Part shown: one piece after another, positions 1,605 to 41,739 of the stretch | Position numbering within the stretch: position 1 is the first letter of the stretch | Layout: each line of letters starts with the position of its first letter | Assembly (NCBI GenBank): GCA_964580765.1 | Contig: CAZOKW010000004.1 | Span: 1-41,739, forward strand | Reading direction: 5' to 3' | DNA: 41,739 nt | From: an uncultured Candidatus Saccharibacteria bacterium | GTDB lineage: Bacteria > Patescibacteriota > Minisyncoccia > 2-02-FULL-40-12 > IGHO2-12-FULL-4 | The notes under the pieces: model-generated | The model's input: the letters and a program-made list of their open reading frames with translations, nothing else | Database searches by the model: none | What the model was told of the DNA's origin: nothing | Position numbers and translations under genes: made by a program

Positions 1605-2456
1605 ATGATTGATTTCAAAAATCTCAAAAAGCCGTATTTAATAGCCGAAATCGGCATTAACCATAATGGCGATTTGGAGATTGCCAAAAAACTGATAGAT
1701 GCGGCTCATGCTTGTTCTTGGGACTGTGTTAAATTCCAAAAAAGGAATCCCGATGTTTGTGTACCTGAAGATCAGAAAAATATTCCAAAGGATACTCCTT
1801 GGGGCAAAATGACTTACTTGGAATACAAAAAAGTTTTAGAATTTGGAAAGAAAGAATACGACTACATAGCCAAATACTGTCATCAAAAGCCAATTGACTG
1901 GACGGCATCGGTTTGGGATCTTGATAGTTTGGATTTTATCAAGAAATACGACGTTCCGTTTATTAAAATTCCTTCCGCTCATCTTACCAATCATAAACTG
2001 CTTAAAGCGTCAGCCCAGACCGGAATTCCGATCGTGGCCTCTACCGGCATGAGCACCCTTAAAGAAATTGATGAAGCCGTCGCTATTCTCAAAAAACATG
2101 CTTCCCAGTTTGTTTTAATGCATTGTAATTCGGCCTATCCGGCTAAGATTGACGAGTTAAACTTAAAGGTTATTCCCGCGCTTCAAAAAAGATACAAATG
2201 CCTAGTTGGTTATAGCGGCCATGAATTTGGTTTGACCACTACTACCGCCGCTATGGTTTTGGGAGCTAAAATAGTGGAAAGACACATTACCCTTGACCAC
2301 ACTATGTGGGGAACAGATCAGTCGGCTAGTATTGAACCTAGTGGTATGGATAAGTTTCATAAACAGGTGAGCGAGATGACCCGTTCTCTTGGTGACGGCA
2401 AAAAAAGGGTTTACGAGACCGAAATGGCTGTCAGAAAAAAATTAAGGGGCGCTTAA
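1605..2456 (+). CDS. neuB: N-acetylneuraminate synthase (NeuB) family protein, no C-terminal SAF/AFL domain
   Basis: IAEIGINHNGD, CVKFQKR, KIPSA, STGMS, LMHCNSAYP, GYSGHE, VERHITLD, GTDQSAS; 283 aa. Confidence 0.9.
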   Translation: MIDFKNLKKPYLIAEIGINHNGDLEIAKKLIDAAHACSWDCVKFQKRNPDVCVPEDQKNIPKDTPWGKMTYLEYKKVLEFGKKEYDYIAKYCHQKPIDWTASVWDLDSLDFIKKYDVPFIKIPSAHLTNHKLLKASAQTGIPIVASTGMSTLKEIDEAVAILKKHASQFVLMHCNSAYPAKIDELNLKVIPALQKRYKCLVGYSGHEFGLTTTTAAMVLGAKIVERHITLDHTMWGTDQSASIEPSGMDKFHKQVSEMTRSLGDGKKRVYETEMAVRKKLRGA

Positions 2457-2468
2457 ATACTATGGGAA

Positions 2469-2780
2469 GCGAGCTTGGTGAATATTGCTTTTTCCGGACG
2501 CAAGTTTGCTTCCAGCGAGCAAACTCGCTCATTGCGGTCTGTGGATTCGGAAAGAATTAAAGTAAAAGTCTTTACTTTAATGAACCTTGATTAATTCTTT
2601 CCGTCCAGCTCGTCACTTTTTCATCTTATTCGAAAACGAATGGGCTGAAAAAGTGACTCGCGAGCAATCTACCATCAGAATACCCCAAAGGGGTAAAATA
2701 GTAGATGAGATGCAGACAAGTTTTACTTGTCTGTCCCCACAGCCCACAGAGCCTTCAAAAGCAATATTCACCAAGCTCGC
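2469..2780. repeat. Branched structured element, family I copy A (putative ncRNA or ssDNA mobile element)
   Basis: Perfect 24-bp terminal inverted repeat GCGAGCTTGGTGAATATTGCTTTT (2469-2492/2757-2780) enclosing several hairpins; shares CCAGCGAG, CTGTGGATTCGGAAAGA and CATCTTAT..ATGGGCTG with copy B. Confidence 0.8.
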
Positions 2781-2790
2781 GGCCATACTT

Positions 2791-2819
2791 TTGACAAATC
2801 ATGTTTTTTTCTTTATCGT
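2791..2819 (+). promoter_or_regulatory. Putative sigma70 promoter of SDR-epimerase pair
   Basis: TTGACA-17 bp-TATCGT; AGGAG SD before ATG 2858. Confidence 0.5.
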
Positions 2820-2857
2820 ATTAGACAATCAGTTGTTCCTTAAAATAAGGAGAAGAA

Positions 2858-3691
2858 ATGAGTGTTTTAGACAAGTTCCGACTGGATGGAAAAGTTTGCG
2901 TCATTACCGGCGGGGCCGGATTATTGGGTATTCAGCATGCCGAGGCGATTCTCGATGCCGGCGGTAGGGTGGTCCTGATTGATATCAATGAAGCAAAATT
3001 GGCTTCGGCGGTGTTAAGTCTGTCCGCCAAATTGACAGGCCGGGCTAATAGAATTTGCGGATATCCTTTTGATATCACTGATGAGGAAGCGGTTCTTTCT
3101 GGTGTGGCTCGAATATCGAGAAACTTCGGTTCAATAGATATCCTTATTAATAATGCCGCCAACGACCCAAAACTGGAAGACGGTGGTAAAAATCTGACCC
3201 GTTTGGAAAATTTTCCAATGCAAGTTTGGCAGGACGACTTTAATGTGGGTGTAACCGGTGCATTTTTAATGAGCCGGGAAATCGGCCAAAGAATGGCTAA
3301 AAACGGCAGAGGAGTAATTCTGAATATCGCTTCTGATTTGGCAGTGGTTGCTCCGGACCAGAGAATCTATCGACAAGAAGGACTTGCCGAAAATGAACAG
3401 CCGGTCAAACCGGTGAGTTATTCCGTGACCAAGCATGCTTTGATCGGGCTGACCAGATATTTGGCTACTTACTGGGCCAACAAAGGAGTGCGGGTTAACT
3501 CTATTTCTCCTGGCGGGGTTTCTAACCATCAGCCGGAGGAATTTGTAGCCAAGCTGACGAATTTAATTCCCATGGGGCGGATGGCCGAAGTTGATGAATA
3601 TAAGGCGGCCGTTTTATTTCTTTGTTCAGACGCCTCGTCTTATATGACCGGCGAGAATTTGATTATTAATGGAGGGCGGACATGTTGGTAG
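2858..3691 (+). CDS. SDR-family oxidoreductase (resembles PtmA-type SDRs of nonulosonate loci)
   Basis: TGGAGLLG, NNAA, YSVTK catalytic motif, VRVNSISPGG. Confidence 0.85.
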   Translation: MSVLDKFRLDGKVCVITGGAGLLGIQHAEAILDAGGRVVLIDINEAKLASAVLSLSAKLTGRANRICGYPFDITDEEAVLSGVARISRNFGSIDILINNAANDPKLEDGGKNLTRLENFPMQVWQDDFNVGVTGAFLMSREIGQRMAKNGRGVILNIASDLAVVAPDQRIYRQEGLAENEQPVKPVSYSVTKHALIGLTRYLATYWANKGVRVNSISPGGVSNHQPEEFVAKLTNLIPMGRMAEVDEYKAAVLFLCSDASSYMTGENLIINGGRTCW

Positions 3692-4536
3692 AAAACAAAA
3701 AACATTCCATTGGGGTGATGCAGGGCCGGCTGACTCCTCCCAAAGGCAGGGGAATCCAGTTTTTTCCTTTTGGGGAATGGGAGGAGGAGTTTGAAAAAGC
3801 GGCGGAACTTGGTTTGGACGAGATTGAATTTATTTTTGACCTGGAGCGCTACGAAGAAAATCCCTTGTGGACTGACAATGGTGTTTTCAAGATTAACGAC
3901 CTTAAAAATTGTTTTGAGGTACGCATAGACCATGTCTGCGCGGATTTTTTTATGAGGCGGCCATTTTTTAGGGTCAAAGAAAAAATCAGGCAGGAAAATG
4001 TTGAAATTTTAAAAAAGATTTTATTTCATGCCCACGCCATCGGCGCTAAAGATATTGAGATACCACTTTTAGACCATTCTTCTGTAAATAACGCCGAAGA
4101 AATGGATTTGTTGTGTAGATCCATTTGCGAATGCTTGCCGGTTGCTCAATATCTTGGTTTGTCTATTTCTTTGGAAACTGACTTGCCACCGAGAAGATTC
4201 CGGCAGTTACTGCAAAGATTTCCTAAACATTTGATTGGAGCGGTCTATGATAGCGGGAATAGTTCAGGACTGGGCTATGATCCTTTCCAAGAGGTTACTG
4301 TTTTGAACAAGTTTATTAAGAATATCCACATCAAAGACAGAGTTTTAGACGGGGATACCGTTCCTCTGGGAACCGGTTCAGCCGACTTTGGTCAGTTGTT
4401 TAGAGGATTACAAAAAATTGGTTATCAAGGAGGTTTTACCCTTCAGGCGGCCAGAGGGGAAGAGGGGAAAGAATCCAAAAACATCCAAGAACAACTAGTT
4501 TTTTTGAAAAGATTAATATCGGGCTACTTGACCTAG
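3682..4536 (+). CDS. Sugar-phosphate isomerase/epimerase (xylose isomerase-like TIM barrel; hexulose/ribulose-phosphate 3-epimerase-like)
   Basis: IGVMQGRL N-terminus, SLETD, YDSGN, HIKD, VPLGTG metal-binding motifs. Confidence 0.8.
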   Translation: MLVENKKHSIGVMQGRLTPPKGRGIQFFPFGEWEEEFEKAAELGLDEIEFIFDLERYEENPLWTDNGVFKINDLKNCFEVRIDHVCADFFMRRPFFRVKEKIRQENVEILKKILFHAHAIGAKDIEIPLLDHSSVNNAEEMDLLCRSICECLPVAQYLGLSISLETDLPPRRFRQLLQRFPKHLIGAVYDSGNSSGLGYDPFQEVTVLNKFIKNIHIKDRVLDGDTVPLGTGSADFGQLFRGLQKIGYQGGFTLQAARGEEGKESKNIQEQLVFLKRLISGYLT

Positions 4537-4561
4537 CCAGCGACATAACGCTGGTTTTTTT
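4537..4561 (+). terminator. Intrinsic terminator
   Basis: CCAGCG-acataa-CGCTGG + T7. Confidence 0.75.
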
Positions 4562-4658
4562 ATTTAAAAATATAAGTGGAAACAAGTCAATATTGATTTT
4601 ATCTTGTCTTTTGCTTTGATTAGGCAGACGATCTTTTAAATTCCAAAGGAGTTTTGCG

Positions 4659-5540
4659 ATGGTGAAAATAGGTGATAAAACCGTTGGTCATGACCAGCCG
4701 GTTTTTGTTACGGCGGAAATAGGCATTAACCATAACGGAGACATGGCCGTAGCAAAAAAACTCATTGATCTGGCGGTTTTGGCCGGCTGTGACGCCGTCA
4801 AATTCCAAAAAAGAACAGTCGAGGTGGTTTATACGCCTGAAGAGTTGGCTAAGCCAAGGGAAAATCCCTTTGGTCCGACTAATGGGGATTTAAAGCGGGG
4901 ACTAGAATTTGGTCGAGAGCAGTACGAGGAAATATCCTACTATTGTTGTCAAAAGGAGATACTTTGGTTTGCTTCTCCATGGGACGAAGAAAGTGTTGAT
5001 TTTCTGGAGGAGTATAATCCGCCTTGCTATAAAATTGCCTCGGCTTCCCTGACTGATGATGGACTCTTGCGCCACATCCGGAGCAAGGGCCGGCCGATTA
5101 TTCTTTCTACTGGGATGAGTGACATGGCGATGATCCGGCATGCGGTGGCGGTGCTGGGACATGTTGATCTTGTTTTACTTCATTGCACCAGCGTTTATCC
5201 AAAAGTCGGCTTGGACTCAACCAATAACCTAAGTTTTGTTAATTTAAAAGTAATAGATGAATTGGGCCACCGTTTTCCTTCCGTGCCGATTGGTTTTTCC
5301 TCTCATTTTAGCGGAATTATGCCGGTCTATGCGGCGGTGGCCAGAGGTGCTTGCATGGTGGAATTTCATATCACTCTGGAACGGTCCATGTGGGGCAGTG
5401 ACCAGGCCAGTTCTCTGGAGTTTCAGGAGTTCAATGATTTATGCCGGATGATCCGCGAACTGAAAATCGCCGAAGGCGACGGGATCAAAAGAATTTATCC
5501 CGAAGAAGAAGCGGTCATGAAAAAGTTACGCAGGAAGTAG
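4659..5540 (+). CDS. neuB: Second NeuB-family synthase, no SAF/AFL domain
   Basis: AEIGINHNGD, AVKFQKR, YKIASAS, LSTGMS, LHCTSVYP, GSDQASS; AAGGAG SD. Confidence 0.9.
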   Translation: MVKIGDKTVGHDQPVFVTAEIGINHNGDMAVAKKLIDLAVLAGCDAVKFQKRTVEVVYTPEELAKPRENPFGPTNGDLKRGLEFGREQYEEISYYCCQKEILWFASPWDEESVDFLEEYNPPCYKIASASLTDDGLLRHIRSKGRPIILSTGMSDMAMIRHAVAVLGHVDLVLLHCTSVYPKVGLDSTNNLSFVNLKVIDELGHRFPSVPIGFSSHFSGIMPVYAAVARGACMVEFHITLERSMWGSDQASSLEFQEFNDLCRMIRELKIAEGDGIKRIYPEEEAVMKKLRRK

Positions 5541-5549
5541 TCAGATTAC

Positions 5550-5575
5550 CAGGGTTTACAAACCCTGTTTTTTTT
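5550..5575 (+). terminator. Intrinsic terminator
   Basis: CAGGGTTT-ac-AAACCCTG + T8. Confidence 0.8.
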
Positions 5576-5603
5576 GGTATTTTATATCAAATTATATCTG
5601 TTC

Positions 5604-5824
5604 GGCTTGATGCATAAGCGTTCCTTCAGGTCGTTCCGCCGCTTTCCAGCGAGCGGCTCCACTCGCGATGAAGCTGTGGATTCGGAAAGAGTCAAAGAAA
5701 TATTATACTCTTTCCGACCCAGGAACTGCCTTTTCCATCTTATGCTTAGCATGGGCTGGAAAAGGCAGTTCCTAAGCAATCCACAACTTCAGAGCGTCCT
5801 TCAGGGATGCATATGCATCAAGCC
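5604..5824. repeat. Branched structured element, family I copy B
   Basis: Closing arms GGCTTGATGCATA/TATGCATCAAGCC; GCCGCT-ttccagcg-AGCGGC hairpin; TCGGAAAGAGT/ACTCTTTCCGA; perfect 17-bp AGGAACTGCCTTTTCCA/TGGAAAAGGCAGTTCCT. Confidence 0.8.
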
Positions 5825-5843
5825 CCCATGATTAAATTTGCAA

Positions 5844-6007
5844 GCAGACTAAAGATATTGTTGCCTCAGAGGCGCTGTGGACTGTGTGATTGCATGGTTT
5901 GGACGAAGTATAATTTTTTCACTTCGGACAAAATCCACAGGCCACGGCGAGCGTAGCGAATCGCTGGTGAGCAAGCGTCCGAAGAGGCAATAGTATCTTT
6001 GGTCTGC
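5844..6007. repeat. Branched structured element, family I copy C (inverted relative to A/B)
   Basis: 24-bp closing stem (5844-5867/5984-6007, three G-T wobbles); reverse complement reads TCGGACGC..CCAGCGA..CTCGC..CTGTGGATT..CCACAG like A. Confidence 0.7.
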
Positions 6008-6056
6008 CGTAGAAAGGTTTTAAATAAAATGCCAACATACTTAACTAAATAAGTCT

Positions 6057-6803
6057 ATGAAAATCTATGTCATCATTCCCGCCCGGAGCAACTCCAAGGC
6101 GGTGGTCTCCAAGAACATAAAAATGCTCAAAGGTTTTCCTTTGCTGGCTTATTCTATCGCCGTTTCCAAACTGATTAAAAAGGTCTCCCGGGTGATTGTC
6201 TCTACTAACTCTCCGGAGATTGCCGAGCTGGCCAAAAGATACGGGGCGGAGGCGCCATTTTTGAGACCGGCCCAATTTTGTAAGGACTCCTCAAATGATT
6301 TGGACGCCATCGGGCATGCCTTAAGATGGCTGGAAGAAAATGAAGGCCAAGTTCCCGATTTGGCCGTTTATTTAAGACCATCTACTCCTTTAAGAGATTC
6401 TCGCCTGATAGACAAAGCCATTGCCAGTTTAGTTAAAAATCCCAAAGCCACCTCTTTACGCTCGGCCCACATTTTAGCGGAACCGCCTCATAAAATGTTC
6501 CAACTCAACAAAGCCGGTTTTTTTACGGGATTTTTTCCTAATTACCCAAAGCCGGAGTATCATGGTATCCCCCGTCAGCTTTTTCCCCAGGCCTACCACC
6601 CCAATGGCTATGTTGATATTGTCAGAAGCGATTTTATAAAAGCCAGCCAATATAAACTTTGCTTTGGGGAGAAGATACTGCCTCTGATTACTCCTATTGT
6701 GACGGAGATAGATTTGCCGGAGGATTTTGAGTATCTGGAGTATCAGATCAACAAGTTTGGCAGTCCGCTTCTTGATTTTTTAAAGGCCAATTTTAAAACA
6801 TAA
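6057..6803 (+). CDS. neuA: CMP-nonulosonate synthetase / acylneuraminate cytidylyltransferase
   Basis: IPARSNSK..KNI, VSTNS, PFLRP, LRPSTPLR, PRQ, PNGYVD, EID. Confidence 0.9.
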   Translation: MKIYVIIPARSNSKAVVSKNIKMLKGFPLLAYSIAVSKLIKKVSRVIVSTNSPEIAELAKRYGAEAPFLRPAQFCKDSSNDLDAIGHALRWLEENEGQVPDLAVYLRPSTPLRDSRLIDKAIASLVKNPKATSLRSAHILAEPPHKMFQLNKAGFFTGFFPNYPKPEYHGIPRQLFPQAYHPNGYVDIVRSDFIKASQYKLCFGEKILPLITPIVTEIDLPEDFEYLEYQINKFGSPLLDFLKANFKT

Positions 6804-6804
6804 A

Positions 6805-8196
6805 ATGTCTAACTATCAATTTTTCTTAAAACCAAAAAAAGTTTCGCCAGTGCAAACAAGATTCAGGAAGATAGGAACAAAAATTCCATCGCCGGAGACC
6901 GTAAAAATAATTCACGAAGCCGAAAAATATGGTTTGGATTTGATGTCCGGCCAGTTGCCGGTGGCTTGGGATAAGGCGATTGATTTTAATGTTTTCGATA
7001 AATCGGGCAATAAGTGGATTGACTTTACCTCCGGTATTTTTCTGGCCAATGCCGGGCATGCTAATCCCCAAATTAAAAAAGCTATCGATAGTCAGTTAAA
7101 AGCCGATCTTCTTCACGCCTATAACTATCCGACAGAAATAAAAACCCGCTTCCTGAAGAAACTTATTTCCCTGTCTCCAAAGTCGTGCCACAAAGCGCTT
7201 TTATTCGCTACTGGGGCTGAAACCACAGAGGCCTCTATTTTGATGATGCGAACGCATGGTCAATTAAAAAACAAAAACAAGATTGGCATCATTTCTTTTC
7301 GGGGTAGCATGCATGGCGCGACCATGGGAGCGCGGATGCTTCAGGGCAACCAAAAAATCTTGGATATTTATGGTTTCTCTGATCCAAACATTTTTCATCT
7401 GCCTTTCCCTTATCCTTGGGAAGCAAAGAGCAAAAATTTTGACTGGACGGCCAGATTTAAAAATGATCTGAAAGAGTTAGAAAAAAGGGGAATGAAGGTC
7501 AAGAATCTTTGCGGTTTTATGGTTGAGTCCTTCCAGGGATGGGGGGCGTTGTTTTATCCCCAGACCTATATTAAAGAGCTGGCGAAGTTTGCGGAAAAAA
7601 ACAAAATACTGCTGGCTTTTGATGAGATCCAAAGCGGCTGTGGCCGGACGGGCAAAATGTTTGCTTTTGAGCATTATGGAGTTACTCCCGATCTGATTTG
7701 TCTGGGCAAGGGTTTAAGCAGTAGTTTGCCCCTTTCAGCCGTGGTTAGCCGGGGGGAGATTATTGATTTGGCCGAGGTGGCTGATTGTGCACACAGTACT
7801 CATTCCGGTAATCCGTTGTCTTGCGCCGCTGGTTTGGCCAACCTGGAGGAGTTGCAGTCGAAAAACTTAATCAAAGAATCGGAAAGAAAGGGTAAGATTC
7901 TTTTGGCTGGATTAAATGAGCTGAAAAATAAATTTCCAGATAGAATTTCTTACGTTTTTGGAAAAGGCCTGCTGGCGGCTGTTTTATTTAAAGACCCAAA
8001 AACCGGAGAACCGGAGGGTGAATTTCCCAGCCGGGTTTGCGAACGGGCTATGCAGAAAGGATTGCTTCTGGTTCATACCGGCCGCGAATCAATCAAAATC
8101 GCTCCACCGCTGACTATACCTAATGATGCTCTTAAAGAAGGAGTTAAAGTTTTGGAAGAGTCAATTTTTGAAATTGAACAAGAAACCGGCAAATAA
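6805..8196 (+). CDS. Class-III PLP aminotransferase (paralog of 142-1509)
   Basis: DFTSG, DEIQSGCGRTG, PDLICLGKGLS, THSGNP; same N-terminal extension (V.T..R.I.TK.P.PE) as first copy. Confidence 0.9.
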   Translation: MSNYQFFLKPKKVSPVQTRFRKIGTKIPSPETVKIIHEAEKYGLDLMSGQLPVAWDKAIDFNVFDKSGNKWIDFTSGIFLANAGHANPQIKKAIDSQLKADLLHAYNYPTEIKTRFLKKLISLSPKSCHKALLFATGAETTEASILMMRTHGQLKNKNKIGIISFRGSMHGATMGARMLQGNQKILDIYGFSDPNIFHLPFPYPWEAKSKNFDWTARFKNDLKELEKRGMKVKNLCGFMVESFQGWGALFYPQTYIKELAKFAEKNKILLAFDEIQSGCGRTGKMFAFEHYGVTPDLICLGKGLSSSLPLSAVVSRGEIIDLAEVADCAHSTHSGNPLSCAAGLANLEELQSKNLIKESERKGKILLAGLNELKNKFPDRISYVFGKGLLAAVLFKDPKTGEPEGEFPSRVCERAMQKGLLLVHTGRESIKIAPPLTIPNDALKEGVKVLEESIFEIEQETGK

Positions 8197-14532: not shown

Positions 14533-16126
14533 TTATGGCGGCTACTTCAAATTTAGACTGCAAATTGTTTTCAATATAAAGATAAATTTCGTTTGTTTTG
14601 TCTTCTCTTAAACCGCTTAAGGCGTTTAGGTTTGGGTAGTCAATGAGCTGATAGGCCGTATTAACTTTGGCCAGATTGGCCAGCAAATTTTCCTGGTACT
14701 TTTCGCCAAAGAGTTTTTGGCCGGAATACAAAAATATGTCATTATTTTGGCCCATGAACGGTTTATAGTCGACCAGTCGCGCTATGGTGGGATAGGCCCC
14801 CAAAACAAGGACCGGATCCTTGGTTTTTATCAAGGTTTTTAATTTATCCGCCACCCTTTCCGGGAAGGAGACCACTTCTTGACTTCCCCGGTCAATTATG
14901 TGGATTTTAATCTCTTTTTTAGCAAAGTCAATCGCCTGGGGGAGGAGGAATATGGCTATAAAAAGACCTGCCCACCAATTTCTTAAGTATTTCTGGAGTC
15001 CGATATTGTTCAGGACAAGAATTAATATAAAAAAGTATAAAGTAAAAAAGGGCGCCTCATGGCTTTTTGCTCCCGAACCAGTGGTGAGGACCGTGGCTAC
15101 GGCCATGAATCCAACCAGCCAGACAAAAAGAACTATTTTTTTGTTTTGCTGGTAAAAAAATCGGAGCTTTGAACCGATGGCTTGGGCCGAATCCGAAAAA
15201 AAGAAAACAGCCATGCTGGCGGCGGATAGGAGGTAGGTTGTCCAATATAGCGGCAAAAATATATTTCTAATGGCGGGCAGTCCCCAGTATAAGGTGGTAA
15301 TGAATTTTTTAGTTATTCTTAACGGCTCGGCTTTATAAATGATGGGGGGTATTTCTATCAGCCATTTTTTTAACAATGAGAGATAGCCAACACCGGGTAC
15401 ATAAAAAATCCACAGAGCCAAAACAGCGAACAGGCCAAACCCGGCCAGCCAAGCCACTACCACTTGGAAACGGGGTTTCCAAGTGGTAGTGGCTAAAGTG
15501 GCGGCCTGCCCTAGCCGTTTTTTATAAAGCCAATAAATAACGAATCCCCCGATGATTAGGGGAACGGCTATGTGGACTTGCCGTCCAATAAAAGCCGTTG
15601 CCCATAAAATTCCCGAGAAGACGGAATAGAGTATGATTTTTTTGGAAGAAAGCCGGATTCGATCGGCGATGATTACGGAAAATAAAAGAAATAAGCTGAT
15701 CAGTTCAAGCGTGTGATAAAAAAGCGGAACGGCAATATCCCGGCCTGGGTCAAATTGTCTGGAAGAAATGGAAACAAAAACTAAAAGCACTGCCAGCCAA
15801 GATTTTGGTAGTGAGCGGGTTAGGGAAAAGGAGATAAAATAAAGAGCTAAGCAGTAAAAGGAGTAAACAGAAAAAAGCATAAAAAACCGATTGGTAAAAT
15901 CGCTGAACCCCATTTTATAAATGGGCGAAAATAGTAAGGGGAATAAAGGTGTGCGATAATCAAAAAAGTCGATCAAAAACTTTCCTCCTCTGGAGATGAG
16001 AGCAGAGAGGTCCATATAAAAAGAATTATCAGTGCCGATAGGCAAGGTTTTGTCAAAATAAAAAACCACGCCAATAATAAACAAAATCAGACCGGGCCAG
16101 ATAACATGGGAATACCATTTCTTCAT
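14483..16126 (-). CDS. Multi-pass membrane protein, probable GT-C fold (ArnT/PMT-like) glycosyltransferase
   Basis: First TM followed by D..FY...G....DFFD..TP loop typical of GT-C; many TM helices and a C-terminal soluble domain; co-transcribed with GtrB-like GT2. Confidence 0.6.
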   Translation of the reverse strand: MKKWYSHVIWPGLILFIIGVVFYFDKTLPIGTDNSFYMDLSALISRGGKFLIDFFDYRTPLFPLLFSPIYKMGFSDFTNRFFMLFSVYSFYCLALYFISFSLTRSLPKSWLAVLLVFVSISSRQFDPGRDIAVPLFYHTLELISLFLLFSVIIADRIRLSSKKIILYSVFSGILWATAFIGRQVHIAVPLIIGGFVIYWLYKKRLGQAATLATTTWKPRFQVVVAWLAGFGLFAVLALWIFYVPGVGYLSLLKKWLIEIPPIIYKAEPLRITKKFITTLYWGLPAIRNIFLPLYWTTYLLSAASMAVFFFSDSAQAIGSKLRFFYQQNKKIVLFVWLVGFMAVATVLTTGSGAKSHEAPFFTLYFFILILVLNNIGLQKYLRNWWAGLFIAIFLLPQAIDFAKKEIKIHIIDRGSQEVVSFPERVADKLKTLIKTKDPVLVLGAYPTIARLVDYKPFMGQNNDIFLYSGQKLFGEKYQENLLANLAKVNTAYQLIDYPNLNALSGLREDKTNEIYLYIENNLQSKFEVAAIIEQDEFKRVTIYRRKK

Positions 16127-16166: not shown

Positions 16167-16229
16167 ACCCCACACATAACTAGTGGTATTTTAAAAGTCC
16201 GAAGTGTTTTCTCTAGTTATGTGTGGGGT
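16167..16229. repeat. 17-bp perfect inverted repeat in a divergent promoter region
   Basis: ACCCCACACATAACTAG (16167-16183) / CTAGTTATGTGTGGGGT (16213-16229), 29-bp spacer. Confidence 0.85.
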
Positions 16230-18687: not shown

Positions 18688-19785
18688 ATGAAAAGCATAC
18701 TTAATAAGTTCTATAATTTTGGTCTCTTGGTGTTGTGCTTGTTTTACATGCCATTTCGTGGGTTGGCCAAGAAAGTTTCCAAGGAGCCAAAAAAAATAAT
18801 AATTCTTCGCTGGACACCCCATATGGGGGATGTGGTTTATACAACTCCGATGTTTTCGGCCATCAAGAAAAAATATCCAGATTGCCAGATTTGCGTAGTG
18901 GGCCGGGGAAGGGTGGAAGAGGTAATCAGGTACAACCCCGAGGTGGATAAATTCATAGAATATAAAGATAACTTTTGGGAAACAGTTAGAAAGATAAGAC
19001 AAGAAAAGTTTGATTTTGGTTGTGTGGCCAAACCGGGGGCATCGGAGGGATTCGCTTTGTTGTATCTTGGCGGAGTTAAAGCCATTTCCATTTTTGATGT
19101 TTTGAATGAACCAAAAGTAAGATCAGCTACCTATCCATTTATGTTAAAATTAGGAGTATCTGTCCCTTTTTATAACCACCAGTATATTCCGCCCCAATTT
19201 TTGAAGCTTCTTGAACCATTGGATATTAAAAATCCTGATGTTCATTTCCATCTTTATTTTTCTCCAGAAGCCGAGAGTAAAATAAATTCTATTTTTAAAG
19301 AAAACAATATTGAACATGGACGGGATTTTATAGTGGCGTTAGCTCCTGGAGGTTCAACTGAAGAGAGGTGGTGGCCAGCGGATAGGTTTGCCGAACTGGC
19401 AAAATATTTGGTAGTTAATCACCATGCCAAGATTTTATTTCTTGGAGCCGGGATTGATAAAAAAGCGATTGATGGCGTTATCCAAAATTTAAGCGATACC
19501 CCCCATATTAATTTACTAAACCAAAATCTAGATGATTTTAAGGCCACCGTATCAAAATGTTCGTTGGTTATTGGCAACGACTCTGGCCCTATGGTTACGG
19601 CCGATGCTTTTAATATTCCTCAAATGATTTTTGTCGGTCCGACTGACCCAAGAGAATACCACACTCTTTCCGGACCAACTTATAAAATACTGCAATCTTC
19701 AGACAGAAAATTGACTTCCATCAGCACAGACACCGCTTTTAAAGAATTATATAATTTGCTTTATAACTTGAGCAGAGTAGCATGA
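18688..19785 (+). CDS. Glycosyltransferase family 9 (heptosyltransferase-like)
   Basis: HMGDVV..TP, NP.VD, APGGS..RWWP..F, IGNDSGP, GPT. Confidence 0.85.
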   Translation: MKSILNKFYNFGLLVLCLFYMPFRGLAKKVSKEPKKIIILRWTPHMGDVVYTTPMFSAIKKKYPDCQICVVGRGRVEEVIRYNPEVDKFIEYKDNFWETVRKIRQEKFDFGCVAKPGASEGFALLYLGGVKAISIFDVLNEPKVRSATYPFMLKLGVSVPFYNHQYIPPQFLKLLEPLDIKNPDVHFHLYFSPEAESKINSIFKENNIEHGRDFIVALAPGGSTEERWWPADRFAELAKYLVVNHHAKILFLGAGIDKKAIDGVIQNLSDTPHINLLNQNLDDFKATVSKCSLVIGNDSGPMVTADAFNIPQMIFVGPTDPREYHTLSGPTYKILQSSDRKLTSISTDTAFKELYNLLYNLSRVA

Positions 19786-32751: not shown

Positions 32752-33671
32752 ATAGCACGCGCGTGGTCGTAACCGGGGGAGCCGGATTTATCGGTTCACA
32801 TTTGACCGACAAACTAGTGGCTAGAGGATATGATGTGCTAGTGATTGACAACATGTCTTTAGGAAAAAAGTGCAATCTTAATTCAAAAGCCAATTTTTAC
32901 CAGGAAGACATCAGGAATCTCAAAGAGCTGAGATGGATTTTCTGGGGAGTGGATTATGTTTTTCATTGTGCGGCCATGCCGCGCATTCAGCCGTCCATTA
33001 AAAATCCGGACGAATCCTTCACCAATAACTTACTGGGAACACATAATGTGCTAATGGCGGCCAAAGAGGCGGGAGTGAAAAGAGTGATTTACTCCGGTTC
33101 TTCTTCGGTTTATGGCGATCAGCCGGAATTACCTTTGTGTGAAAACATGACTCCCAGACCGAAAAACCCTTATGCCTATGACAAGTGGCAAGCAGAAGAA
33201 CGATGTTTAATGTTTTGGAAGTTATTTCAGATGCCAGTGGTGTGTTTGCGTTACTTCAATGTTTTTGGAGAGCGGCAGTCAACAGAGGGGGCTTATGCCA
33301 CGGTGGTGGGAATTTTCCTTCGTCAAAAAGAAAGAGGCGAACCGTTGACCATTGTCGGAGATGGCAAACAACGGCGCGACTTTACTTATGTGGCGGATGT
33401 GGTGGAAGCTAACATTAGTGCCATGGAATCTGCCGAGGCTGTAGGGCAGGTCATTAATATCGGCACCGGCGCGAATTACTCCGTCAATGAATTGGCTGAC
33501 TTAGTTGATTATTTAGGGGGTAAGATGGTAGGTAAGAAACATTTGCCGTCCCGTCCTGGTGAGGCCCAAGAAACTTTGGCCGATATTTCCAAAGCGCAGA
33601 GATTGCTTAATTTCAAACCGACCATCTCTTTGAAGGATTGGATTAAATTGGGCGGGAAAACGGCCGGCTAG
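32748..33671 (+). CDS. NAD-dependent nucleotide-sugar epimerase/dehydratase
   Basis: TGGAGFIGSH, SSSVYG, YAYDK, LRYFNVFG, GDG.Q.RDF. Confidence 0.9.
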   Translation: MNSTRVVVTGGAGFIGSHLTDKLVARGYDVLVIDNMSLGKKCNLNSKANFYQEDIRNLKELRWIFWGVDYVFHCAAMPRIQPSIKNPDESFTNNLLGTHNVLMAAKEAGVKRVIYSGSSSVYGDQPELPLCENMTPRPKNPYAYDKWQAEERCLMFWKLFQMPVVCLRYFNVFGERQSTEGAYATVVGIFLRQKERGEPLTIVGDGKQRRDFTYVADVVEANISAMESAEAVGQVINIGTGANYSVNELADLVDYLGGKMVGKKHLPSRPGEAQETLADISKAQRLLNFKPTISLKDWIKLGGKTAG

Positions 33672-33689
33672 TATGTTATAATCATCTCA

Positions 33690-35621
33690 ATGACAATGCT
33701 CCAGAAAAAACTTCTAGGTTCAGTCGCAGCGGTATTATTCACGATACCGCTTTTTGTTTACCCCGAGTTATATCGAGGGGTTTTCATCCAATCTGCTAAA
33801 GCGGCCACCACGGTAGACGGTTACAGTCCGCAGTCCTTTTTCATCAGCAGTGATTATGAATTCAGCGGCCGCACCCAACTCCAAGCTACTTTACGGGTGG
33901 AAGGGGAAAAGGCCAAGTTTTTTATTGATGACGATTACTGGTTTGCTCGCGATTCTTCGGTTCAACAAGTGATTAGACAGCAAGTGCTCAAACTGGCTGA
34001 AGAATTTGATACGCGAATTTATCCGTTAGAAACCGCTTTCTGGGGACAAGAAAATATTCCCGGTGTAGACAATGATCCAAAAGTGGTAGTGCTATTGGCC
34101 AATCTGATTGATACGGCGGGAGGATATTTTGATACCGCCCATCAATTTTCCAAAACAAAATTTCCGGATTCCAATGAAAAAGATATGGTCTATTTAAATA
34201 TCCGGTCTTTGCGTAATGAGAAAAGAGGGTTTGCTTTTTTAGCCCATGAATTTCAACATCTCATCGCTTTAAATCAAAAAAATCTTCTGCGCCGCGCCGA
34301 TGACGACATCTGGTTAAACGAATTGCGTTCGGAATACTCTATCTCCCTGCTTGGTTATAATGATCTCTATGCCGATTCCAATCTCAAAAGAAGGATGATA
34401 TCTTTTTTGGGCGAACCATCGGATAGTTTAACTGAGTGGGGCAATCAAGCGGCCGATTACGCCCAAGTGGTTTTTTTTGGCGAATATTTGACGGAGCATT
34501 TTGGCTCTAATCTTTTGAAACAGTCCTTGCATTCCGGTTTGGATGGTATTGCTTCTTTGGAACAAGTTTTGCGGGATAACGGTTACCAACTTAATTTCGG
34601 AGATGTTTTTTTGCGCTGGTCTGCGGCTAATGTTTTAGGCGATCTTTTGTTGGGCAGCGACTACGGTTATTTCCGGGAAGGATTACGGCAGGAACTGCGC
34701 GTTCCCGCCACCCGTACCATTGCCGGTCTTAGCGAGAATGCCGGTTTTTCCCTGACCGAGGCCTTCAAAGATTGGCAGACCAAATGGATTTGGATTACGG
34801 ATATTTCCAGAGGAACTAAAAATACGCTGAAAATAAATTTTAGCGGAGAGAAGGAGGATTTTTTCCGCGGAACCGTTATTAGTTTTTATCAAGATGGCCG
34901 GCGGGAAGTGAAATTTTTTGATTTAAGCCAGCCGGGACCGGGTGATTTATTTTTCGATTTTAATCTCGGTACGCCCGGACAAGGATTGGAGAAAATAATT
35001 CTTCTTCCGGTGAAAATGGAAAAGAAAAATAACTTTACAGATAAAGAACCTTTGTCTGATTTGACGATTAAACTGGAGAGAGTTTTGTCGGTTTCTTTTC
35101 CTCTGCCAACTCCCACTCCAAATTTGACTCCCATCACTACTCCCAGTCCCGCTATCCAACTAAACATACTTGCAGTTCGGCCGGCTGATTTTGGTTTGCG
35201 GGAGGGCGATTTTATCAGAGCGGAAGGGGATATTGATGTCTATATTATTAATGACTTTGGATTTAAGCGCTTAGTTTTAAATCCGCAGATCTGTCTTTTA
35301 TACGGCCATTTAAGCACCCGCACTGCTCTGCGAAGTACTTCGCTACGCAGCACGAGTGGTTGTTTTGGGGCGGTCAAGGTCGTTTCACCCCAAGTACGGG
35401 ATGCTTTTAAGACCTCTTTGTTTTTTACCGACGGAGAAAATAAAGATGGACGCATTTATTTTTTAGAATTAACCGGAGAGGATAGCGCTGTCTTGCGTTT
35501 TATAAATATGTCCGGAGACGATTTTATTCGGCAAGGCGGAAATTTTTCCTCCGTGTTTCTTTTTAACACTCGCGAAAAAAATACTTACCCCTTAGGAGAG
35601 AACATCAGAAAGCTAAACTAA
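33690..35621 (+). CDS. Secreted/surface zinc metallopeptidase (M30/M6-like HExxH) with Pro/Thr linker
   Basis: N-terminal signal/TM, GYF, AHEFQH zinc motif, WLNE third ligand, PTPTP linker, C-terminal domain. Confidence 0.7.
   Translation: MTMLQKKLLGSVAAVLFTIPLFVYPELYRGVFIQSAKAATTVDGYSPQSFFISSDYEFSGRTQLQATLRVEGEKAKFFIDDDYWFARDSSVQQVIRQQVLKLAEEFDTRIYPLETAFWGQENIPGVDNDPKVVVLLANLIDTAGGYFDTAHQFSKTKFPDSNEKDMVYLNIRSLRNEKRGFAFLAHEFQHLIALNQKNLLRRADDDIWLNELRSEYSISLLGYNDLYADSNLKRRMISFLGEPSDSLTEWGNQAADYAQVVFFGEYLTEHFGSNLLKQSLHSGLDGIASLEQVLRDNGYQLNFGDVFLRWSAANVLGDLLLGSDYGYFREGLRQELRVPATRTIAGLSENAGFSLTEAFKDWQTKWIWITDISRGTKNTLKINFSGEKEDFFRGTVISFYQDGRREVKFFDLSQPGPGDLFFDFNLGTPGQGLEKIILLPVKMEKKNNFTDKEPLSDLTIKLERVLSVSFPLPTPTPNLTPITTPSPAIQLNILAVRPADFGLREGDFIRAEGDIDVYIINDFGFKRLVLNPQICLLYGHLSTRTALRSTSLRSTSGCFGAVKVVSPQVRDAFKTSLFFTDGENKDGRIYFLELTGEDSAVLRFINMSGDDFIRQGGNFSSVFLFNTREKNTYPLGENIRKLN
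35315..35358. repeat. Palindromic insertion inside peptidase CDS
   Basis: CACCCG-ca-CTGC-tct-GCGAAGTACTTCGC-tac-GCAG-ca-CGAGTG. Confidence 0.65.
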
Positions 35622-35722
35622 AACTTTAAAAATAGATTGGAGGCGGAGGGGAACACTTTTTTTGAGCACCGTCGAATAAAAAAGTATGTTCACCGGAGCA
35701 TCCCAAATCTATTTTTAAAGTT
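35622..35722. repeat. Hairpin element family II, copy 1
   Basis: 66-bp core 35638-35703 identical to 36358-36423; outer arms AACTTTAAAAATAGATT/AATCTATTTTTAAAGTT. Confidence 0.9.
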
Positions 35723-41634: not shown

Positions 41635-41739
41635 CTTGTTGTAATACCCCTTCGGTCGTCAGAAATCCCAGCGAGATTTCTGACTCGCGCAAAGTTGCTC
41701 GCGTTGTCAAGAGCCCTGTCAGAACAGGGTCGTTGACAA
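41635..41739. repeat. Branched structured element, family I copy D (truncated by window end)
   Basis: TTCGGTC, GTCAGAAATC-CCAGCGA-GATTTCTGAC, TCGC, then TTGTCAA..CCCTG/CAGGG..TTGACAA hairpin. Confidence 0.65.

Follow-up and report, generated by a model that had tools for sequence, protein, structure and literature searches.

Rickettsia palindromic elements (RPEs) are, according to the passages on them in PMC10969869, short palindromic repeats of several sub-families in a reduced genome with no known transposase; they lie between genes and also in frame within unrelated genes, where they are translated and the protein is apparently not destroyed. The part of PMC3116915 drawn on here describes REPINs, which are built from repetitive extragenic palindromic (REP) sequences, as non-autonomous hairpin repeats that persist vertically, commonly carry compensatory changes, lack classical terminal inverted repeats (TIRs) and target-site duplications (TSDs), and are thought to be handled single-stranded. 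[quoted passage not shown] Here we analyse a 312-nt branched palindrome (copy A, positions 2469-2780) in a stretch of 41,739 nt, called the window below, which is the whole of contig C4 in a 687-kb genome (G000; 30 contigs, 43% G+C) of the candidate phyla radiation (CPR); copy A probably belongs to a family of small mobile DNA elements that are non-autonomous, branched-palindromic and specific to one lineage.

Bacteria of the CPR have among the smallest and most tightly packed genomes and are usually described as poor in mobile DNA. In this 0.69-Mb genome about 1.4% of the sequence belongs to one branched palindromic repeat family, which persists across an order. In behaviour the family is closest to RPEs and REPINs, but by the features that define them it does not qualify as MITEs, REPINs, IS200/IS605 derivatives or integron attC sites. 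With RPEs, as the source passages present them, it shares short palindromic repeats, a reduced genome, sub-families, and the occurrence of intergenic as well as translated in-frame copies. It differs in that only 2 of its ~50 copies lie inside genes, compared with nearly half of the RPEs in three of the RPE families, and in that it has no conserved peptide frame (stop-free frames: 11/126 forward, 9/126 reverse). The element is a three-way junction with optional modules whereas an RPE is a simple hairpin, the phylum is different, and the two are likened by behaviour and not by homology.

The likeness to REPINs and their REP-associated tyrosine transposases (RAYTs), again as far as the cited part goes, covers the non-autonomous hairpin repeats, the compensatory changes, the lack of TIRs and TSDs, and the presence in the genome of genes for Y1 (HUH) transposases. 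In REPINs, however, the terminal REPs are conserved and the spacer is variable, whereas in the element the termini (closing stem P1) are variable and the interior is conserved; as this is the opposite of the REPIN pattern, and the Y1 genes are not flanked by the element, a REPIN/REP-RAYT assignment was rejected. The family resembles MITEs, in the features for which those passages describe them, in being small, abundant and intergenic and in having tandem pairs and modules as in BOX, but it has no conserved TIRs, TSD or internal promoter-like hexamer pair, and its core is branched with sequence-conserved loops. The classical MITE was accordingly set aside (TIRs not conserved between copies; no TSD seen), as was a palindromic element derived from IS200/IS605 (no conserved flank motif, no TnpB (PF07282), and Y1 open reading frames (ORFs) without matching ends). 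Full-text literature searches turned up no earlier account of repeats of this kind in the phylum; the family is restricted to one lineage and, as far as the literature search shows, previously undescribed.

Copy A and the repeat family

The 312 nt of copy A have a minimum free energy (MFE) of -138.6 kcal/mol, as compared to -71.2 +/- 4.8 for shuffled sequences (z = -14.0; 0/100 shuffles as stable). An earlier note, made from the letters of the window, had described this branched fold with its perfect 24-bp closing stem, starting 12 nt past the stop of a neuB1 gene, with the same order of motifs at 5604-5824 and, inverted, at 5844-6007, and a further copy from 41635 to the end. Every stem listed there is present, the upstream ORF belongs to the NeuB family by PF03102, and the second and third copies (B and C) fold and match the family; the last copy (D) is also real and can be refined to a member of a sister subfamily with a different central arm, cut by the contig end. 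The features are as follows (window coordinates; copy A is given in the orientation F of that note, co-directional with the flanking genes).

1605-2456, + strand: NeuB-family gene upstream of copy A (PF03102, E = 2.7e-75), its stop 12 nt before P1 (base 2469)
2469-2780, + strand: copy A, long form, core plus three extra hairpin modules, 312 nt (fold z; nhmmer end modules)
2469-2492, + strand: P1 5' arm of copy A, P1 subfamily GAGCTTGGTGAATATTGC, pairing with 2757-2780 (24/24 bp)
2503-2525, + strand: P2 hairpin of copy A, AGTTTGCT-tccagcg-AGCAAACT, conserved loop tCCAGCGa (CGCTGG on the opposite strand)
2538-2548, + strand: 5' side of the conserved helix cTGTGGATT of copy A; TCTGTGG (2538-2544) pairs with CCACAGA (2744-2750)
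2548-2604, + strand: inner hairpin CGGAAAGAATTAA...TTAATTCTTTCCG of copy A, with a small extra hairpin in its loop
2612-2657, + strand: optional module of copy A, a variable stem (pair GTCACTTTTTCA/TGAAAAAGTGAC) around the conserved loop ATCTTATTCG...GGGCT
2668-2737, + strand: optional two-hairpin module of copy A, between GCAATC and CACAG (sequence, fold and alignment)
2757-2780, + strand: P1 3' arm of copy A, complementary to 2469-2492
about 5596-5832, + strand: copy B, long form (fold z = -12.9; nhmmer end-module matches)
5843-6008, - strand: copy C, short core form, in a convergent tandem pair with copy B (covariance-model match of 161.1 bits, E = 1.3e-39)
41635-41739, + strand: copy D, sister subfamily, cut by the contig end (compared with full-length copies on C5, C6 and C16)

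The end modules of copy A are matched by nhmmer at 2479-2548 (5' module, E = 3.7e-16) and 2737-2766 (3' module). In its cTGTGGATT helix the partner is CCACAG(A) at 2744-2750, the usual GCAATCCACAG being interrupted by an extra module; copy A also holds ATCTAC/GTAGAT, TACCCC/GGGGTA and CAGACAAGT/ACTTGTCTG hairpins. Modules of copy A recur elsewhere: CATCTTAT[GT]C has 9 occurrences across the genome, and the copy at C22:2664-2994 has an insert related to the two-hairpin module. Copy C, the top score of the covariance model, folds on both strands (minus-strand 5840-6012, z = -5.2). Copy D has the 5' junction and P2 modules of the family and a different central arm (TTGTCAAGAG...TCGTTGACAA), and its full-length relatives lie at C5:~19540-19693, C6:~33570-33740 and C16:~7760-7900.

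In the predicted structures, the element is a small (about 140-340 bp) branched-palindromic repeat with a three-way junction as its core, to which the short form (~145-165 nt) corresponds. On the F strand the order is P1 5' arm, CTTTTTCCGGACGCT, P2 hairpin (loop CCAGCGA), CGCTC, P3 and TGTGGATT, followed by the inner hairpin (loop ATTATAC in short forms, GTATAAT on the opposite strand), ACC, the optional modules, GCAATCCACA, P3', CGCCTCCAAAAG and the P1 3' arm. Read on the better-folding strand, a hypervariable closing stem P1 of 15-32 bp leads through a purine-rich internal loop to the three-way junction, one arm of which consists of P3, the helix GTGGATT/AATCCAC and the inner hairpin with loop GTATAAT, and the other of P2 with loop CGCTGG. 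Long forms carry additional hairpins at three fixed places (the inner-hairpin loop, the GCATGG bulge, and between GCAATC and CACAG), all of which are occupied in copy A. In 11 copies of differing backbone subtypes (for example G000:C1:36909, C6:33474, C8:17612 and C26:1153) the 27-nt core of a nested hairpin module of ~56 nt shows 100% identity, with no 1-2-mismatch variants in the genome; this implies that the module has spread recently or that elements have undergone gene conversion with one another. Segments of 98-99% identity also occur between otherwise diverged copies, and together with the shared module core they make the family a mosaic.

The family is large in this genome, as the earlier note had expected from the copies in the window. 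The 9-mer CTGTGGATT has 67 genomic occurrences, mostly in inverted pairs, against ~5 expected by chance; an nhmmer profile of the 5' module has 49 matches; and a covariance model built from 15 short copies (R1) has 55, of which 9 were counted as reverse-strand partial echoes of full matches and 46 retained. Merging the two lists gives 48 loci, two of them tandem pairs, to which a few sister-subfamily copies are added, for a total of ~50 copies; the 42 with both end modules delimited sum to 9,632 nt, or 1.4% of the genome. Copy A matches the short-core R1 weakly (11.2 bits, E = 0.43, filters off) because of its three extra hairpin modules, and its membership is based on the nhmmer end modules and direct alignment. 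As R1 is poor on long forms, the copy counts in other genomes are lower bounds.

Searched with R1, 21 of 41 genomes of the same order contain the family, with up to 28 matches per genome; by family of the order, these include 8/8 in the own family, 8/12 in f4, 3/12 in f3 and 1/8 in f2. In a class-level sample 5 of 151 genomes are positive, and the one outside the order has a single match on a 1.5-kb contig. A scan of the genomes of 185,579 species with the core pattern gave at least 112 stretches, of which 80 loci were listed and searched with R1. Among these listed matches, at least 48 in public records are confirmed by R1, all of them, to judge by the record titles, in metagenome-assembled genomes of the Parcubacteria type; the records are labelled Candidatus Yanofskybacteria, Paceibacteria/Paceibacterota, Parcubacteria group, Patescibacteria group, unclassified "bacterium", or, in third-party assemblies, "uncultured Candidatus Saccharibacteria"; none of the listed unrelated bacteria that match the core pattern by chance pass R1. 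Viral carriage was rejected, as the core pattern occurs in 9 viral contigs and 0/9 pass the covariance model. The covariance model thus recovers a dispersed family both in the genome and in its relatives.

No riboswitch, ribozyme or insertion-sequence end had been recognised in copy A, and the comparison with Rfam bears this out: at gathering thresholds the whole window has 0 matches, and in E-value mode positions 2300-6200 have 5, all far below gathering and without relevance (miRNA-precursor models in three cases, at the perfect hairpin 5712-5784, and a CRISPR repeat and a Streptococcus small RNA in the others). A promoter reading was rejected, the GTATAAT loop having no conserved -35 partner and no sigma-70-like site being predicted inside the elements at 2300-6200. 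The same goes for a terminator reading: no T-run follows P1, and a separate terminator-like hairpin (5550-5567, with a T-run), distinct from the element, precedes copy B.

Some further observations concern the window and the assemblies. Three other perfect hairpins in the window (15452-15494, 16167-16229 and 35622-35722, with 17-20 bp arms) are outside the family; two have no other genomic copy, and the third has two 2-mismatch arm matches only. The window also appears to hold a cluster for a nonulosonic-acid sugar, judging by genes for two NeuB-family paralogs (1605-2456 and 4659-5540), an aminotransferase, a short-chain dehydrogenase and a cytidylyltransferase. At the DNA level this cluster is not shared with a same-genus genome, in which the repeats themselves are all that matches the first 8 kb of the window (71-93% identity). 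Several contigs begin or end inside an element (window 41635-41739, G001:C11:1-150, G001:C12:1-150 and G006:C40:1-132), and the family therefore probably causes assembly breaks in these metagenome-assembled genomes (MAGs). In practice, besides the probable assembly breaks, such elements create spurious ORFs, and they could serve as lineage markers.

Probable mobility and the making of the stems

Two copies lie in frame inside genes and are read through. The first (C3:13776-13939) is within a 417-aa ORF of a GT4-type glycosyltransferase (G000:C3:13192-14445), where it forms an insert of ~55 codons at an inter-domain linker; most listed homologs are ~360-390 aa, the linker is short at this position in 7 of the 16 homologs aligned, and the translated core (...DFVRSEEIILRPNHAIHSRQ...) is present in three proteins. 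Other glycosyltransferase lineages have different in-frame inserts at the same linker, which is therefore an insertion hot spot. The second (C12:9194-9371) is in a 369-aa nucleotidyltransferase-like ORF (G000:C12:8362-9471, - strand) with homologs of mostly 315-345 aa, and is translated in the same reading frame of the core as the first; its first ~23 inserted residues are found in 0 of 8 aligned homologs, several of which are gapped through most of the segment. Both inserts are placed in variable linkers by the alignments. Lying in a lineage with a reduced genome that is distant from Rickettsia, these copies make an independent second case of repeats translated inside proteins.

Comparison of filled and empty sites, as the earlier note had proposed, shows that occupancy differs between species. 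At one site, with the same genes on either side, the element in G004 and that in G007 are of different subfamilies and point in opposite directions; at three sites filled in G001, G000 has unrelated DNA, two elements of other types, or ~450 nt of other sequence. The note had left a functional RNA and a mobile element side by side, and the in-frame insertions in two genes and the different elements at an orthologous site favour the mobile element. Next to P1, no direct repeat (TSD) or conserved motif was seen in 42 copies (12 of them with a P1 of at most 5 nt as called by script, so that their ends are poorly placed), and growth of P1 into the flanks could blur the true ends of the element. Neither copies nor orthologs agree in the outer 10-15 nt of P1, and the inner part of P1 is shared within sub-families only.

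The stems covary strongly. Among the 15 paralogs, double compensated changes are found in 20 of 40 predicted pairs; in an alignment of 19 distinct rows (20 matches from loci of relatives), 95.7% of the cells are paired (36.5-40.8% when the partners are slid), 29 of the 40 pairs have double changes, and none of 500 shuffles (0/500) attains these values. Across genera the loops and junctions (GTGGATTGCATGG, GTATAA, GAGCG and TCGCTGG) are constant, in line with the proposal that structure is conserved and sequence variable. Across the 14 closest paralog pairs, 103 double changes keep pairing and 22 break it, one-side changes leave 47 positions still paired and 82 broken, and 815 positions are unchanged; compensated doubles are far in excess of what independent change at ~10% divergence would be expected to give.

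The same covariation, although it exceeds shuffles, would equally be produced by templating of one arm on the other at the DNA level. The in-gene copy C3:13776-13939 has an ortholog in a close relative (locus L085), and the P1 arms of the two are unrelated in sequence, each perfectly paired. In L085 the P1 5' arm begins within the conserved host codons CCGCCAGT (invariant Y-P-P-V), and the distal arm ends with ACTGGCGG, the exact reverse complement of these codons. In the copy at G000 C5:24450-24713, the outer 8 bp of P1 are TGGTGTAG, i.e. the last GyrA codons and stop, paired with the distal CTACACCA. The GyrA C-terminus and stop are conserved in G001, G004 and G007 (with a similar form in G002 and G003), and no family motifs were seen by eye downstream of the GyrA stop in G001 and G004, where no model search was made. 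As the outer P1 is host-derived in these two cases, the palindrome has grown outward by inverted copying of host sequence.

Intramolecular template switching at quasi-palindromes makes imperfect inverted repeats perfect or more so, as stated in the part of PMC7202029 used here. By this route one mutation would become a "compensated" pair in a single step, so that some of the covariation is likely to be mechanistic, not selective, and was probably made at the DNA level in this way. This goes beyond the earlier note, whose proposal of a conserved structure stands. It also bears on RNA discovery, where template switching at palindromes can mimic compensatory covariation, and covariation tests alone could miscertify repeats as RNAs. 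A side observation on the same gene is that the GyrA ORF (G000:C5:20565-24470) is 1302 aa long, and GyrA is 1306 aa in G001, 1296 aa in G004 and 821-839 aa in G002, G003 and G007, which suggests an intein-sized insertion, polymorphic within this family of genomes.

The repeat inserts as DNA, mostly at gene 3' ends with polarity and rarely in frame in genes, where it is then translated through. A trans-acting, structure-specific enzyme may recognise the conserved loops and junctions of a folded single strand, so that the stems need only pair. Much of the perfection of the stems may come from intramolecular template switching at quasi-palindromes, in which one arm is copied from the other and P1 could be lengthened into the host flank, and selection on the core would act in addition to such templating. 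By analogy with REP, a secondary effect on mRNA 3' ends is likely.

Position, strand and candidate enzymes

Copies are concentrated at gene ends: of 42 copies, 15 have the stop codon of a neighbouring ORF (>=120 aa) inside their terminal 35 nt, and for 6 more it is at most 20 nt beyond the element. The F strand is co-directional with the stop-abutting upstream gene in 17 of 20 G000 copies (one of the 21 rows was dropped from this count, its ORF, C12:8644-9192, overlapping a real gene on the other strand). In other genomes 37 of 59 model matches abut a stop, with 27 co-oriented and 10 opposite; at least 3 of the 27 are duplicate records, leaving ~24:10. Adjacent pairs of elements are always convergent on the F strand (6/6), five in G000 and one in G001:

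window 5588-6008: tandem pair (G000, C4)
G000:C1:29012-29449: tandem pair
G000:C10:15654-16190: tandem pair
G000:C13:8020-8479: tandem pair
G000:C6:33357-33740: tandem pair
L036:1500-1862: tandem pair

In the C4, C1, C10 and C13 pairs one member has an inner hairpin of CGGAAAGAG-type and the other of TTGTCCGAAG-type, and the C6 pair consists of a TTGTCCGAAG-type copy and a sister-subfamily copy.

The earlier note drew the structure on the F strand, and the better-folding strand proved to be its reverse complement (R), which folds better in 36 of 42 copies (summed MFE -4507 vs -4173 kcal/mol). The bases left unpaired on R comprise 38% A, 22% G and 15% C (purines 60%, as compared to 40% on F), and G.U exceeds A.C on R (57:26 and 24:9) in alignments fitted to an R-built model. 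Both this asymmetry and the polarity would agree with a strand-specific substrate of single-stranded DNA.

An HUH/RAYT-like or other structure-specific enzyme encoded elsewhere had been suggested as the partner, and four paralogous Y1_Tnp (PF01797, HUH) ORFs of 217-235 aa were indeed found in the genome:

G000:C22:9749-10456, + strand: Y1 ORF
G000:C19:11401-12087, - strand: Y1 ORF (L150)
G000:C23:11599-12252, - strand: Y1 ORF (L151)
G000:C14:16687-17352, - strand: Y1 ORF

The best NCBIfam match of the Y1 proteins is REP-associated tyrosine transposase, below its cut-off: one protein scores 52 bits against 80, and a second protein has no match. The palindrome at the C22 gene (TTGAGGCTAAGCCTCAA) has ~10 exact genomic sites, 3 of them at the gene itself. 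These genes and their short palindromes look like REP/RAYT-type units in a CPR genome, distinct from the element family; a link between the REP of the C14 gene and the element was rejected, as only ~10 nt (GGCGCTGT-type) are in common. Over the 41 genomes, element and Y1 occur together in 14, the element only in 7, Y1 only in 5, and neither in 15 (related MAGs, with Y1 sub-types pooled), i.e. Y1 is present in 14/21 element-bearing and 5/20 element-free genomes. A RAYT-like Y1 (HUH) transposase acting on single-stranded DNA is the best candidate for the mobiliser, a proposal that we make tentatively and with considerable doubt. The genome has 0 matches to TnpB (PF07282) and 0 to IS110 (PF01548). 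With four REP/RAYT-like units beside the element family, this one genome offers a compact setting in which to match hairpins to the enzymes that move them.

Several observations weigh against a mobile element or against its proposed partner. The palindromes on either side of the Y1 genes are short and particular to each gene (four different ones) and are not this element, the nearest copy of which is ~1.3 kb away; this differs from a REPIN with its RAYT, as does the finding that 7 of 21 element-bearing genomes have no Y1 match, among them G026 (16 matches), G023 (12) and G005 (11), which are 95-98% complete. Kinship among the genomes means that the 14/7/5/15 table overstates the association. 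At the sites examined there is no clean empty site, the intergenic DNA of relatives being unrelated or holding another element. Full-length identity, with P1 counted, is 90-94% between the closest paralogs and below 97% in every pair, so that nothing points to a recent burst; the stems are nevertheless intact, which function in situ fits as well as mobility does. The evidence on strand conflicts: in most copies R, the strand with RNA-like loops, runs antisense to the neighbouring gene, and the MFE-based counts of G.U, which differ little (208 vs 178), speak against favouring R on that ground. Growth of P1 into the host is robust in two cases only (L085 and GyrA); in other copies the neighbouring stop codon is the element's own (C14) or overlaps the element by just 3-4 nt. 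Finally, the near-identity of an orthologous pair in G004 and G007, taken below as a sign of selection, could alternatively reflect recent re-insertion at a hot spot.

Competing explanations

The element might instead be mainly a functional structured RNA, a cis-acting 3'-UTR (untranslated region) or intercistronic element serving for example as exonuclease barrier, processing site or protein platform, held by purifying selection and with its spread a side effect; we consider this unlikely, though some of the data speak for it. Three species of one genus have the element between the same genes, and there the copies in G004 and G007 have 2 differences in ~143 nt (counted from the alignment) within a surrounding 1.9 kb that is 83% identical, and in the more distant G006 copy P1, P3, P2 and the inner hairpin have many paired changes that preserve the fold. 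Likewise, G000 and L085 are ~92% identical in the core (9 differences in 107 nt, counted from the alignment) and 78-80% in the gene flanks. Judged from these two ortholog comparisons, in which the core changes more slowly than the flanking genes, selection appears to act on the core, as the mobile-element reading holds as well. A functional RNA would also agree with loops and junctions conserved across families of the order while the stems covary, with 21 of 42 copies at or up to 20 nt from a stop codon and with polarity, with the RNA-like composition of unpaired positions on one strand, with the lack of any copy pair younger than ~6% divergence although the stems are intact, and with the effects on mRNA stability reported for REP and ERIC (in the passages of PMC10969869 cited here). 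It is opposed by the orientation of the RNA-like strand, antisense to the neighbour gene in most copies, and by the lack of a predicted sigma-70-like promoter inside the elements at 2300-6200; moreover, about one third of the copies have the other orientation, two are translated inside genes, sister species differ in which sites are occupied, a terminator-like hairpin comes ahead of copy B, and stems that extend into host codons indicate templating at the DNA level.

We find it improbable, if worth stating, that the three-way-junction core is a new class of structured nucleic-acid module, recognised as a folded single strand by a partner, with stems that vary and are actively re-perfected, and co-opted by the host at the 3' ends of many operons. 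It would then be a CPR-specific mobile functional RNA or single-stranded DNA domain under selection in situ, and not merely a selfish one.

Returning to the mobile DNA element, its spread could in principle proceed through RNA, with the transcribed element copied into DNA by the reverse transcriptase (RT) of the genome. One RVT_1 gene is present and the element is strongly structured as a single strand, but the single RT is not near any element, no poly-A or other 3' tail, TSD or 5'-truncated copies were seen, and both ends are kept, and we regard this route as very improbable. The RT gene (G000:C13:885-1904, L152; 339 aa, RVT_1 E = 3.5e-22) has ~800 nt of non-coding sequence upstream.

A site of the integron attC type, folded as a bottom strand after stop codons and recombined by a tyrosine recombinase, would account for structure being kept over sequence, for the position right after or over the stop codons at ORF 3' ends with fixed polarity and for the better folding of the complement of the coding strand, but is hardly credible here, as the genome has no integron integrase (best TIGR02249 score 82.2 bits against a 265-bit cut-off) and no cassette arrays (copies are scattered by housekeeping genes, e.g. 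gyrA and rpoC), its one tyrosine recombinase behaves as Xer, as in all 14 control genomes, there are no conserved core sites at the base of P1, and the conserved part is the interior and not the ends. This sole tyrosine recombinase (Xer-like, in a 314-aa open frame; G000:C22:10892-11419) is located directly downstream of the C22 Y1 gene, with REP copies between the two.

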